Origin: an uncultured bacterium
GTDB lineage: Bacteria; Planctomycetota; UBA1135; GCA-002686595
Reading direction: 5' to 3'
Length of the DNA stretch: 64,000 nucleotides
Assembly (NCBI GenBank): GCA_943787795.1
Contig: CALSNU010000001.1
Location: 1 to 64,000 of the forward strand
Position 1 is the first letter of the stretch, and the number at the start of each line of letters is the position of its first letter. Below, one piece after another: positions 12,001 to 15,000 of the stretch. Made by a program: the position numbers.

Positions 12001-15000
12001 GCGGACAATGGTCAGGAACCAGTTGAGCCGGATGCCTTCGAGGGCGCGGATCTTCTCGCGCAGCGTCTTGCCGCGTACGAAGTCCATGACCATCACGGGG
12101 CGGCCGTCGTGTCGGAAGCAGTCGCGGACGGTGACCACGTTCGGGCTCTTGACCTCCTGGAGGAGCTCGGACTCCTCGCGGACGAGGTCATCGATCTCGT
12201 GGACGTCCAGGAAGTCAATGCGCACCCCGTCCTGTCGGAAGAAGATGGCCTCCGCCGGCGTCTCGTCAGGGCTGATGCCCTCGGCCTGACGCTTGTTCGT
12301 GATCTCCAAGAAGCGGGTCACGTAACGGCCGCCGCCGGCGACGTCCCCGATCTTGAGGGCGACCTTTTGGCCCTCCTCATCTTCAGCGAGGTAGACCAGC
12401 GAGAATCCGCCGCGTGCGATGAAGTCGAGCACTCGGTACGTGCCGATGCGTTCGCCTGCTTCGAGTTTGATCATCGAGACTGCCTCGGGATCCGGAGAGC
12501 GTGAAGGAGAGGGGTGCTGGGAGGACTGAAGTGAATGCGCGATGGGGGGCTGCTTGAGCGTGCCCGGAACCGCGCCTTCACTCCCTCATCGAGAGAATCG
12601 GGCCGGGGATTGAGGGAATACCGAGGTCGGTCTGCGCTCAAATCCGTCGGGCGGGGCCAGGGGGGGCGGGTTATCCGCCAATTCCGCCTGGCAGCCGGGC
12701 CCGTTCGGCCCGGGTTCGGGCCTCCAGCTGTTGGATCGGGAGCTCGGCCATCCGAGCCTCCTCACCGACCCCGAGGATCTGCTGGACGCCCTCCAGCACC
12801 GTTCCGGTGCCAAGCCAGGCGTCTTCCTCGTGGGGGATCCGCTTCCAGGAGCGCCCCAGGTGGTCGATCATTCCGACGTCCTGGTCCCAGGGATTGCGAA
12901 CCATGAAGAAGAACTCCTCGGGATCGCTCTGGCCGGCGAAGCGCACCACGGAGCCCAGGAAGGACTTCCCATCTTCGACGACCCAGGCGCGCTCGGCGGG
13001 GACGACCGAGATGAGGGCGCCTCTGGTCTCGACGGCCCCCACGGTCGTGGTCGAGGTGACGCAGCCGGCCACGAAGAGGCCTAGCCAGGGGAGCAGCGAA
13101 GAGGGGCGCATGGGGGAAATCAGGCCGGGGAGTGTCTCGGGCGGAGGATCCCCGCTTCTTCCGGTGATCCACCGGCGACATCTCCTCCCGACGGGAGAGC
13201 CATCGGCGGTAACATCCCTTCGATGAACGACGAAGGTCTGGAAAAGACGCGGCGTGCCGGGAAGATCGCCGCCGCGTGTCGAGAGTGGGCCCGGGGTGCG
13301 ATCCAGCCCGGCGTAGAGCTGCGCCACGTGCTCGAGACGATCGAGTCGATGATCCGGGAGGCCGGAGCGGCGCCCGCCTTCCCGGCGCAGACTTCTCGTA
13401 ACGAGTGCGCGGCCCACTACTGCTCTGCTCCGGAGGACACGATGGTGTACGAGGAGGGCGACGTGGTGAAGGTCGACATGGGGGTCCACGTGGACGGGTG
13501 GATCGCCGACACCGCCTGCACGGTTGACCTGTCCGGGAACGGCGAGAACGCGGACCTGATCGGCGCCTCTGCCGATGCGCTCGCCGCGGCCATCGCTCTT
13601 GTCGAGCCTGGGCGTCCGGTCTCCGAGATCGGCGCCGCTGTGGAGCGGACCATCACCCGCGCCGGCTTCGAGCCCGTCCGGAACCTGACCGGGCATGGCC
13701 TCGATCGATGGAAGGTGCATTGCGCGCCCCAGATCCCCAGTTACGGGGAGCGGGGTGGAGGTCGCCTCCAGGAAGGATCGGTCATCGCCATCGAACCCTT
13801 CGCTTGCACCGGGCGTGGCTTCATCCACGAGGCGGGCAAGGCCGAGGTCTTCATGCTCGTCCGCCCCCCGCGGAAGGCCAAGGGCATCGACAAGCAGGTC
13901 CTGCGCGCGATGCAGGGCTGGAAGGGGCTCCCGATCGCCCGGCGGTACTTCAACGAGCTCGATCGTGAGGTGCTCGAGGACACCATCTCCAAGCTGGCGA
14001 AGCAGGGGTCACTGGTCCGCTACCCGCCCCTCGTCGAGCAGCCTGGCGTCCTCGTGGCGCAGACCGAGCACACGCTGCACGTGGCCTCGAGCGGCGTCGA
14101 GATCATCACGGCCTGATCCGGCGCTGCTCTCGGCGGAGTGCCTAGCCGTTGAGGGGTATACCCTTATGTGCTAGCCTGGCCGCGTGATCACGCGCCTCAC
14201 TCGAGAGGGGAGTCCTGCGGTCGCTCGATCTCTCGCGGACCTTCTCGCCGAGCGCACACGCGGCCGGAGTGGTCTGGCCCCTGTCGGGGGAGAGGTCCAG
14301 CGGCTCTGTCTGGCGTTGTGTGGCGCGGTGGAGGCCCTCCATGCGAGCGGCAAGGCCCACGGCGCCCTGCGCCCCTCGGTCTTTCAACTGAGCGTCGATG
14401 GGGCCGTGACTCTGCTCCCGGCCACCACGTCATCTGCGCGAGTCACGGTGCTCAGGTATGCGTCCCCCGAGGTCGCGGGCGGGTCGACGCCGACGCTGGC
14501 GTCAGACACCTTCTCCCTCGCCCTCGTGTTGTTCGAGGTCCTCGCGGGCGTGCCGTCGCGCATGGGTTCAGAGCAGGAGATCACGGCGCAGGCAGAGGAC
14601 GGACGGGTTCCGGTGCCCGAAGGGCTCCCTGAGCGTCTCTCTGGCCTCGCGGTGCGCTCAACCGCGGCCGAGCCGGGCCATCGGCCCACTCCAGCTCAGT
14701 GGCGGGCCGCGTTCGAGCGGCCCACGCCTGCCGGGATCCCAAGGAACATCACCCTGCTCCTCGGTACATGCGTGCTGGCGCTGGGGGCTGTCATGGGCGC
14801 CACGCAGAAGAGCGCCTCGGAGGCGCGTGAGCTCACCGCGAGCCAGCTGGACGACGCGCGTCTCACCTTCGACAAGCTGCTGATCGGGACCTTTGATGAG
14901 CTCGAGCGGGTACAGGACATCGGCCCGCTCGCGGCCGTCGGGGCGCGCGCCCTCGCGTCCATCGAAGCCGCAGATCAAGCGGGGGAGCTGGACGATCGAG

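Follow-up and report, generated by a model that had tools for sequence, protein, structure and literature searches.

Which enzyme removes the initiator methionine in a bacterium whose genome encodes a methionine aminopeptidase (MetAP) of the archaeal class? Type I is the bacterial MetAP and type II the archaeal one, and the two occur together only in eukaryotes, as stated in passages of two papers (PMC10724148, PMC5325365). The window analyzed here, a stretch of 64,000 nucleotides from an uncultured planctomycete, carries a gene that a preliminary description had assigned to type II and had taken to be the only MetAP gene of its genome, type I being gone from the whole order. Full-text literature searches returned no report of a bacterial lineage that uses a type II MetAP, and the term 'aminopeptidase' is absent from the searched text of two papers on the Saltatorellus lineage (10.1101/817700, PMC11032199), the supplementary tables of which lay outside the search.

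The window encodes an intact type IIa methionine aminopeptidase

The ORF that raises the question is an intact type IIa MetAP gene (Table 1). Its product matched TIGR00501, the NCBIfam equivalog model for the type II MetAPs of MEROPS M24A, with 276.2 bits (cut-off 222.65) over its full length, residues 3-296 corresponding to profile positions 2-294 of 295, which repeats the 276 bits against a cut-off of 223 given earlier; a six-frame search of the genome with the same model gave 275.7 bits for the gene. The type I model TIGR00500 scored 137.2 bits, below its cut-off of 171.35, so that the protein is not a member of type I. The sole Pfam family found was Peptidase_M24 (residues 7-201), and the best solved structure was the MetAP of Pyrococcus furiosus (1wkm/1xgs, E 1.4e-55, residues 7-294). 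The identity of 42.7% with a sequence from an Archaeoglobaceae MAG is consistent with the 44% to Archaeoglobus reported in the preliminary description.

Table 1. Position and nature of the features discussed at the MetAP locus of the window
Feature	Position	Strand	Remarks
Type IIa methionine aminopeptidase gene	13223..14116	+	ATG start, 297 aa, 0 internal stops
Type II-specific insert, about residues 202-274	13826..14044	+	Unmatched by the type I profile
Small ORF, 147 aa from the chosen start	12671..13114	-	Lies within a longer ORF of the same strand; separates the kinase-like gene from the MetAP gene
Stand-alone Hanks-type Ser/Thr kinase-like gene, 308 aa	11548..12474	-	Divergent from the MetAP gene

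Seven residues of the window MetAP, H65, D85, D96, H158, H166, E191 and E282, are invariant across 52 aligned relatives. Both catalytic histidines lie in these invariant columns, as do the five ligands of the two-metal center, D85, D96, H158, E191 and E282 (Asp, Asp, His, Glu, Glu), which we take to be the metal ligands on the basis of the aligned P. furiosus structure. The P. furiosus type IIa enzyme (1XGS/1WKM) is nearly equal in length (295 vs. 297 residues) and aligns with the window MetAP from end to end; the two share the five ligands, the two catalytic histidines and the C-terminal insert, and neither is extended at the N-terminus. The lack of an extension places the 297-residue protein, whose type II match begins at residue 3 (profile position 2), in subclass a. 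With eukaryotic MetAP2 (type IIb, human 1B6A/1BN5), the window MetAP has the catalytic domain and the insert in common (E ~6e-29, residues 10-295), but it lacks the charged N-terminal extension of that enzyme: of the 478 residues of the human chain, those before residue 170 lie ahead of the match. The histidine of MetAP2 that is modified by fumagillin presumably corresponds to H65 and appears to be conserved.

The window MetAP and the type I MetAP of Escherichia coli (map, 1MAT/2MAT) share a pita-bread catalytic fold and presumably a job (match over residues 4-201, E 1.5e-17), but the E. coli enzyme has no insert. The type I model matched bases 13226-13825 (residues 2-201, profile positions 5-210). 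A second match, a very weak one (E 3.5), covered bases 14045-14113 (residues 275-297, profile positions 224-246), and there was none between bases 13825 and 14045. Residues 202-274, which this stretch encodes, align continuously with the P. furiosus MetAP and with TIGR00501 (positions 2-294).

The predicted activity of the protein is to cleave methionine off the N-terminus of peptides whose second residue is small. The gene is under purifying selection (dN/dS 0.036-0.158 in eight of eight pairs), and this, together with the status of the protein as sole MetAP, argues for enzymatic activity. Because the activity is predicted from sequence, and because the genome encodes three other M24 proteins, the protein could instead be an Ebp1-like pseudo-peptidase or an M24 enzyme of another specificity, with methionine removed by some other enzyme or by none. 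We regard this as extremely unlikely. All the metal ligands and both catalytic histidines are kept, and the Ebp1/PA2G4-like model TIGR00495 gave 92.2 bits against a cut-off of 430.05. Nor is the protein one of the Xaa-Pro aminopeptidases or prolidases (M24B), as it has neither the AMP_N nor the Creatinase_N domain that the true M24B proteins of the same genome do have. The three other M24 proteins show an aminopeptidase P/prolidase architecture (AMP_N plus M24, 445 aa; Creatinase_N plus M24, 470 aa) or are divergent (M24, 466 aa), which agrees with their earlier assignment as non-MetAP genes. Also against this alternative, neither bacteria nor yeast survive the deletion of every MetAP gene, according to one paper (PMC10724148).

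Contigs from RNA libraries (four runs of one study) cover parts of the MetAP gene at identities of at least 99%; DNA carry-over is possible and stretches without cover carry no meaning, and we grade these matches as weak evidence of transcription.

The ancestral position of the type I gene is closed

Six-frame searches with TIGR00500 found no type I MetAP over the cut-off in the genome that contains the window, in any of 101 genomes of the order, the single-contig genomes G024 and G072 among them, or in Saltatorellus ferox Poly30, a cultured isolate with a closed genome. The search controls behaved as expected, with type I found in 10 bacterial and type II in four archaeal control genomes; none of the 10 bacterial controls had type II. 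In four of the five type I planctomycetes checked, map is found downstream of secY, at a distance of 187-740 bases, and the secY-(adk)-map-infA slot is the ancestral position of the gene. The gene order in the genome of the window is rpsE-rplO-secY-infA-rpmJ-rpsM-rpsK-rpsD-rpoA-rplQ; the gap of ~6 bases between secY and infA is assembled and holds no map, and the type II gene is located elsewhere. Because the slot is both assembled and closed, we conclude that the loss of type I is real.

An artefact, in which type I was missed through incomplete assembly or divergence, or in which the type II gene represents archaeal contamination of the bins, could be suspected from the completeness of the genome (84.88%) and from the fact that most of the genomes searched are incomplete MAGs. 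We give this hardly any credence. Besides the closed slot and the absence of type I from single-contig genomes and from that of a cultured isolate, a six-frame Pfam search for M24 found three loci only in the genome of the window, the G+C content near the MetAP gene (0.68-0.69) matches that of its flanks, and the neighboring genes are conserved across relatives. The claims that the type II enzyme is the only MetAP, and that type I is gone from genome and order, have thus withstood the searches with both models, a larger sample and an inspection of the slot.

The genome retains def (154.7 bits, cut-off 103.95) and fmt (238.5 bits, cut-off 201.5), and def was over its cut-off in 58 of 61 genomes of the class. 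Its host, a bacterium with fmt and def, sets the window MetAP apart from the archaeal type IIa enzymes. Because this host keeps both genes, the MetAP must act after deformylation, and we infer that it would be active on deformylated bacterial N-termini.

Type II replaces type I in a class and in a second clade

Our survey covered about 440 genomes. Type II was over its cut-off in 97 of the 101 order genomes, in a repeat, on a larger sample, of the earlier counts for the order (26 of 26 for type II and none of 26 for type I). As to the misses, the type II match in G098 and G043 starts no more than a few bases from the end of a contig, G088 has a partial match (220.3 bits, in a 243-aa open frame), and G093, which is 82% complete, gave no type II match. 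For the class, represented in the searched genome set by this order alone, the count was 144 of 151. Type II is also the only type in another clade of planctomycetes, one that lies outside the class (5 of 5 genomes of family f31 and 6 of 6 of f69, 11 of 11 in all), to which G409 is added. The order-wide replacement described before is therefore correct for the order, but its scope was drawn too narrowly, as the replacement takes in the whole class and the f31/f69 clade.

Among 251 genomes of the phylum, 219 had type I only, 24 had type II only, seven had neither over the cut-off and one, G209, had both. Outside the class (238 phylum genomes), type II was over the cut-off in 12 genomes and type I in 220.

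Some genomes carry both types

G209 contradicts the earlier statement that types I and II are strictly exclusive in the Planctomycetota. Its type II gene is on a native contig, next to a gene with an 85% identical counterpart in a genome of the same genus, and the type II copy nests within family f10 (support 97-99). Contamination of the bin with f10 DNA was considered as the source of this second MetAP and rejected: the copy shares only ~60-68% identity with those f10 copies to which it was compared, its flanks are unlike theirs, and the flanking gene is native.

An order labelled Acidobacteriota mostly has both types, with type I over the cut-off in 34 and type II-like genes in 32 of 41 genomes. 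Its type II copies nest among the class sequences (96/95, in a group of 18 rows). G209 and this order appear to represent an intermediate, both-type state, and we count them in favor of displacement.

The bacterial type II copies form one deep clade

The preliminary description had left the source of the gene to a phylogeny, which we have built. A FastTree analysis gave a support of 100 to the split of 81 bacterial rows from the other 78, which are archaeal or unnamed. In a type I-rooted tree, 31 bacterial rows formed one clade (SH-aLRT 99), and the same clade was recovered in a bootstrapped type I-rooted tree (UFBoot 78/SH-aLRT 99), where its bootstrap support is moderate and the bootstrap had not settled. 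Its main branches are 44-50% identical to one another. The window MetAP is thus separated from the archaeal type IIa enzymes by its position in a bacterial clade, with an identity of at most 48% to named archaeal sequences. All the bacterial type II copies appear to form one deep clade, and 'archaeal-type' denotes the class of the enzyme, not a recent import from archaea.

The sister of the bacterial clade was an archaeal group of 16 rows, four Woesearchaeota MAGs among them (support 98; 76/87 in the bootstrapped tree). This points, with moderate support, to a source near Woesearchaeota-type archaeal sequences, so that the phylogeny supplies a candidate archaeal source but does not fix it. An archaeal donor lineage and the direction of transfer are likely, but they are not secure, because the tree was built without TACK, Asgard and eukaryotic sequences and because the outgroup, type I, is a distant one. 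Under midpoint rooting, the bacterial clade was sister to all the sampled archaeal rows, and the archaeal rows fell on one side of a branch in 20% of the bootstrap trees. Together with the depth of the bacterial clade, these two results count in favor of vertical descent of type II, with no archaeal transfer, from a bacterial ancestor of very early date that had both types. We think this very unlikely, since vertical descent requires a very large number of independent losses, given the rarity of type II in the phylum outside the class and its absence from the bacterial controls, and since, under the type I outgroup, the bacterial clade joins a single archaeal subgroup instead of branching outside the archaea as a whole.

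Type I may have been replaced once or several times. Class and f31/f69 MetAPs are 47-48% identical, a level as low as that of the identities to archaea, and this indicates that their split is old, rather than that they were exchanged recently. In a tree of RpoB, for which the loci were taken by homology, f31 plus f69 and the class fell into a polytomy that also holds the type I families f62 and f34 plus f63; in the best tree, a branch with a support of 25.8 sets the 17 type II genomes together, apart from the others. A single replacement event is therefore only a candidate, because the branch that joins the type II lineages has so low a support. Possibly, there were several events: the class and f31 plus f69, followed at a later time by G209 and the Acidobacteriota-labelled order, would each have received type II from other bacteria and lost type I independently. 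The unresolved sisterhood in the RpoB tree is compatible with this, as is the MetAP tree, which has f31 apart from f69, the former inside the class sequences and the latter basal. Secondary transfers are moreover seen in the nesting of the G209 and Acidobacteriota-labelled copies. However, an AU test on the MetAP alignment did not reject a tree in which f31 and f69 were held together, as in the species-tree grouping (p 0.198), the old split argues against recent exchange between class and f31/f69, and the best RpoB tree, for all its low support, keeps the type II genomes together. On balance, we consider several events a possibility to be taken seriously, yet a rather doubtful one.

Conserved neighbors of the MetAP gene

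Pfam found no family in the small ORF. In a comparison of 31 loci, 25 have it beside the MetAP gene, at identities of 34-84%; we read its N-terminus as putatively lipoprotein-like. The kinase-like gene matched Pkinase with 66.3 bits, and its best structure was StkP (E 3.2e-13). It adjoins the MetAP gene in 14 of 16 loci of f1, two of two of f5 and two of two of f9, and gave no hit within flanks of ~1.5 kb in the f2, f4, f7, f10, f31, f69, f63, Acidobacteriota-labelled and archaeal loci. It is a conserved neighbor of the MetAP gene, and a functional link is hypothetical. A joint arrival of the two genes was rejected on the grounds of these same missing hits, f63 aside. A GNAT acetyltransferase gene (16712-17215, minus strand) was likewise rejected as a linked N-terminal acetylase: it scored 26.6 bits as RimI, against 86.4, and is not consistently nearby.

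Discussion

We consider it highly probable that a working type IIa MetAP of archaeal ultimate source displaced the native type I map, in a xenologous displacement of an essential gene. On this account, an ancestor would have gained the type II gene, both MetAP types probably coexisted for a while, and the native map would then have been deleted from its position after secY; we infer this sequence of steps, as we do the lineage of the archaeal donor. In the present-day cell, translation would start with formyl-methionine through fmt, and peptide deformylase, the def product, would take off the formyl group. The type II enzyme would then cleave off the methionine by means of its two-metal center, as the sole remover of initiator methionine in the cell.

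Archaeal-type aminoacyl-tRNA synthetases in some bacteria are xenologous displacements of essential translation genes. There, too, a near-universal essential bacterial gene has been replaced throughout a lineage by its archaeal-class counterpart; the MetAP case differs in showing a natural series of genomes with type I only, with both and with type II only. Because the enzyme itself is conventional, the surprise is limited, and the novelty is the lineage-wide displacement of an essential gene.

A more far-reaching reading would join these observations. An old, self-standing bacterial type II lineage would be able to dock on bacterial ribosomes and to work after deformylase, and would spread between phyla and repeatedly oust type I; the swap in the Saltatorellus lineage would have altered which N-termini are processed; and in f1, f5 and f9 the enzyme would be controlled by the very highly conserved, divergent small Ser/Thr kinase, all as part of the unusual cell biology of shape-shifting bacteria. 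We find this combination improbable as a whole.

The displacement of map by a type IIa gene means that a marine planctomycete and its whole class, which has a cultured member, and a second clade run on type II MetAP alone. It follows for genome surveys that a missing type I map in these lineages is not to be taken as a sign of an incomplete genome. The natural series of genomes can be used to study how an essential gene is displaced, and S. ferox is a cultured bacterium open to type II-selective inhibitors and to N-terminal proteomics. As judged from its sequence and from the genes that its host retains, a type II enzyme would be able to serve a system that starts with formyl-methionine and depends on deformylase.

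Identity and setting of the aminopeptidase gene

The preliminary description had assigned a type II methionine aminopeptidase (MetAP) to the window, and this assignment was borne out. The protein scored 276.2 bits against the type II equivalog model TIGR00501 (cut-off 222.65) and 137.2 bits, below the cut-off of 171.35, against the type I model TIGR00500; Peptidase_M24 was its sole Pfam family. The closest solved structure was the archaeal MetAP of Pyrococcus furiosus (1wkm/1xgs; E 1.4e-55, residues 7-294), followed by chains of eukaryotic MetAP2 (E ~1e-35 to 1e-29); bacterial type I chains matched at E 1e-22 or weaker and aligned with residues 4-201 only. 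When the protein was aligned with 51 relatives, the invariant columns included H65, D85, D96, H158, H166, E191 and E282, all seven present in the window protein. From alignment to the solved enzyme, we take five of these residues to be the metal ligands of the family and two to be its catalytic histidines. The type I profile broke off at residue 201 and resumed weakly at 275, and residues 202-274 are therefore assigned to the type II insert. In excerpts of PMC1266368 this insert is the feature that distinguishes type II from type I enzymes; the Background of the same paper has a distribution sentence that places type I in Archaea and type II in Bacteria, opposite to other sources, which is probably a slip. 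As the protein lacks an N-terminal extension, it belongs to subclass IIa.

The G+C content of the gene (0.68-0.69) was the same as that of its flanks, and dN/dS in pairs with eight relatives was 0.036-0.158. Contigs from RNA libraries (four runs of one marine study) spanned portions of the gene at an identity of at least 99%, a weak hint of transcription, as RNA libraries can contain DNA. The family is well known, and the enzyme is a typical member that standard annotation models already recognise by name.

Features at the MetAP locus of the window
Feature	Position	Strand	Remarks
Stand-alone Hanks-type Ser/Thr kinase-like gene	11548-12474	-	308 aa; divergent from MetAP gene
Small ORF	12671-13114	-	No Pfam family; upstream of MetAP gene
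MetAP ORF	13223-14116	+	ATG start; 297 aa; internal stops 0
TPR protein gene	14184-15947	+	587 aa; weak partial kinase-like match; 68 bases downstream of MetAP gene

An RluD-type pseudouridine synthase gene lies farther upstream. The kinase-like gene shows stronger conservation than the MetAP gene, with identities of 99-100% versus 95-97% among close relatives, 91% versus 83% in Saltatorellus ferox, and about 80% versus 62-71% across family f1. The kinase-like gene adjoins the MetAP gene in most catalogued loci of f1 (14/16) and in those of f5 (2/2) and f9 (2/2), and a match to it was found in 48 of 215 MetAP loci. No match to it lay within about 1.5 kb of the MetAP gene in f2, f4, f7, f10, f31, f69, f63, Acidobacteriota-labelled or archaeal loci; thus, it did not arrive jointly with the MetAP gene. 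A functional tie between the two is possible. The TPR protein evolves fast (63-73% identity where the MetAPs of the same relatives are 95-97% identical), and more distant genomes lack its gene at this site.

Type I MetAP is absent from the order

A type I search of the assembly that contains the window (G000; 4.71 Mb, 8 contigs, 84.88% complete) returned nothing above the cut-off, and its top match was the type II gene itself (129.2 bits). A six-frame search with the Pfam M24 model detected three loci, and the type I search a weak fourth. The remaining M24 genes encode an AMP_N+M24 protein (445 aa), a Creatinase_N+M24 protein (470 aa) and a divergent M24 protein (466 aa), and are not MetAPs, as had been stated before. 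Controls gave the expected outcome: the 10 bacterial control genomes exceeded the type I cut-off, and the 4 archaeal ones the type II cut-off.

Across the order, type I was over the cut-off in none of 101 genomes, single-contig G024 and G072 among them, and type II in 97. Among those below the type II cut-off, G098 and G043 have matches that start within a few bases of a contig end. The match in G088 is partial, covering profile positions 57-294 in an open frame of 243 aa (220.3 bits), whereas G093, at 82% completeness, has no type II match. The claim that type I is missing, and type II in place, throughout the order was thus upheld. The complete genome of the cultured S. ferox strain Poly30 likewise had no type I match over the cut-off, the top match being its own type II gene (143.5 bits). 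The single-contig genomes of the class (G024, G072, G352 and G384) are rated only 88-94% complete. Completeness estimated from marker genes seems to come out too low in this lineage, and the value of 84.88% may therefore understate that of G000.

The gene order around secY bears on whether the type I gene was merely lost to an assembly gap. Of the five type I planctomycete genomes checked, four carry the type I gene, map, at its ancestral position, 187-740 bases beyond the downstream end of secY. In contrast, G000 has the order rpsE-rplO-secY-infA-rpmJ-rpsM-rpsK-rpsD-rpoA-rplQ, assembled within a 795 kb contig (G000:C4:50000-62000, L180, outside the window), with a gap of about 6 bases between secY and infA and neither adk nor map between them. 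Because this slot is closed, we conclude that type I was deleted rather than left out of the assembly, on evidence independent of the profile searches.

G000 encodes a peptide deformylase that scored 154.7 bits (cut-off 103.95) and a methionyl-tRNA formyltransferase that scored 238.5 bits (cut-off 201.5). The deformylase gene passed its cut-off in 58 of the 61 class genomes searched; the other three are 93%, 84% and 70% complete. Since these enzymes are kept, formyl-methionine still begins the proteins of this lineage, and the type II MetAP would have to work downstream of deformylation.

Distribution among Planctomycetota and other bacteria

In a class-level sample of 151 genomes, all from the one order, type II was over the cut-off in 144 and matched at E <= 1e-45 in 149. 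Sampling of the phylum (251 genomes) gave 25 with type II and 220 with type I over the cut-off: 219 genomes had type I only, 24 type II only, one (G209) both, and seven neither (G109, G225, G229, G269, G284 and G329, 59-86% complete, and G283, 91%). The type II-only genomes comprised the class (13/13 sampled) and two planctomycete families outside it, f31 (5/5) and f69 (6/6). Thus, the core of the earlier interpretation, type II in place of type I, holds, and its scope was too narrow. In an RpoB tree the class formed a single clade (SH-aLRT 99), as did f31 and f69 with G409 (100); the placement of the two relative to each other was a polytomy shared with the type I families f62 and f34+f63. 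The best tree put all 17 type II genomes on the same side of a branch with a support of just 25.8. Given that polytomy and support, a single ancestral replacement is one possible reading of the data.

The two types had also been described as strictly mutually exclusive in the phylum, which G209 contradicts. This genome of family f63 (91% complete, 1% contamination) has a type I match at 1.8e-92 and a type II match at 3.6e-75, and its type II copy is nested among family f10 sequences in the MetAP trees. The gene adjoining it is 85% identical to its same-genus counterpart as against 46-47% to f10 genomes, and G209:C25:19000-31000 (L307) is colinear with G246:C47 (L308) at 74-80% nucleotide identity, so that the contig is native. 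Synteny stops ~330 bases before the type II gene, which looks like a later gain. G209 is a living example of the state with both types inside the phylum, in a type I family.

A scan of named genomes returned type II genes under non-planctomycete labels, and five were examined further. Type II only was found in G405 (Acidobacteriota, 4.09 Mb chromosome; L263), G408 (Glaciecola; L228) and G409 (Phycisphaerales; L220), and both types in G406 (Vicinamibacteria; L255) and G407 (Chloroflexi; L275). Contrary to their labels, G408 and G409 cluster with planctomycete lineages. The MetAP genes of L228, L075 and L082 (Glaciecola, Paracoccaceae and Paceibacteria MAGs) are close to Saltatorellus-class sequences and have the kinase-like neighbour too; those of L220, L230 and L262 (Phycisphaerales, Phycisphaera mikurensis and Brocadiaceae MAGs) are nested inside the Saltatorellus-class, f31 or f69 groups. 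The labels of these six loci look wrong, or the bins mixed.

RpoB of G405 and an order-mate was 43-44% identical to the G384 reference and fell outside all 30 planctomycete rows (support 100); the order of G405 therefore belongs to a different phylum, as labelled. Its RpoB proteins (G405, L305; G410, L306) are about 1,440-1,470 aa long and match the model in two pieces, as compared with about 1,240 aa in planctomycetes, a difference that points to an insertion of some 200 residues. Type II-like genes occurred at E <= 1e-45 in 32 of 41 genomes of this order, 18 of them over the cut-off, and type I was over the cut-off in 34 of 41; most have both. Type II alone is present in G405, G421, G430, G431 and G445; G414 shows just a type I fragment, and G437 lacks both. 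In G441, G433, G415, G429, G449 and G435 the type II match lies inside an open frame of 595-677 codons, ~2x the gene length, and the type II extraction from L292 is 533 aa; the long frames may reflect an extended N-terminus or a fusion, or may be no more than open frames in G+C-rich DNA.

Origin of the bacterial type II clade

A phylogeny, which the preliminary description lacked, placed the bacterial copies in one clade beside an archaeal group with Woesearchaeota MAGs. An exhaustive profile search gave 398 representatives at E <= 1e-30. An unrooted FastTree of 159 rows split 81 bacterial rows (67 labelled Planctomycetota, 9 other or unlabelled bacteria, 5 unnamed) from 78 others (42 named archaea, 2 Altiarchaeota duplicates, 34 unnamed clusters) with support 100, and in an unrooted IQ-TREE quick tree (LG+G4, 81 rows) the bacterial-archaeal split had an SH-aLRT of 99. 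In a quick rooted tree (76 rows, with five type I sequences as outgroup), 31 bacterial rows formed one clade (99), joined with support 98 to a 16-row archaeal sister of four Woesearchaeota MAGs, three labelled Methanosarcinales, one 'archaeon' MAG and eight unnamed clusters. A bootstrapped rooted tree, whose bootstrap had not settled, supported the bacterial clade at 78/99 (UFBoot/SH-aLRT), its sister group at 90/90 and the node that joins them at 76/87. Among the matches listed in a scan with a sister-group protein, all 80 loci were archaeal by label.

Because archaeal rows flank the inferred root on both sides and type II is rare in bacteria, transfer from archaea to bacteria is the likely direction. 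The donor may have been an archaeal lineage near Woesearchaeota-type sequences; we hold donor and direction with moderate confidence, since the tree leaves out TACK, Asgard and eukaryotic rows and the outgroup is distant. G409 with protein P0007, and f69, were basal in the bacterial clade. The MetAP tree separates f31 from f69, in contrast to the RpoB tree; in an AU test, however, a grouping of f31, f69, G409 and P0007 was not rejected (p 0.198). Acidobacteriota-labelled copies were nested among class sequences (18-row group, 96/95), suggesting a later transfer from a Saltatorellus-class donor. The window protein is 44-50% identical to the f31, f69 or Acidobacteriota-labelled copies and up to 48% identical to the nearest archaea; as identities across its branches are no higher than those to archaea, the bacterial clade is old.

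Significance

As stated in excerpts of PMC10724148 and PMC5325365, the accepted rule assigns type I to bacteria, type II to archaea and both to eukaryotes. A full-text literature search turned up no bacterial lineage reported to use a type II MetAP, and the term 'aminopeptidase' was absent from the main text of two Saltatorellus-lineage papers, their supplements lying outside the search. What is new is the lineage-wide displacement of type I by type II MetAP, a separate bacterial clade of type II enzymes, and a state of coexistence in a second phylum. These findings are of relevance to specialists in N-terminal protein processing and planctomycete evolution.
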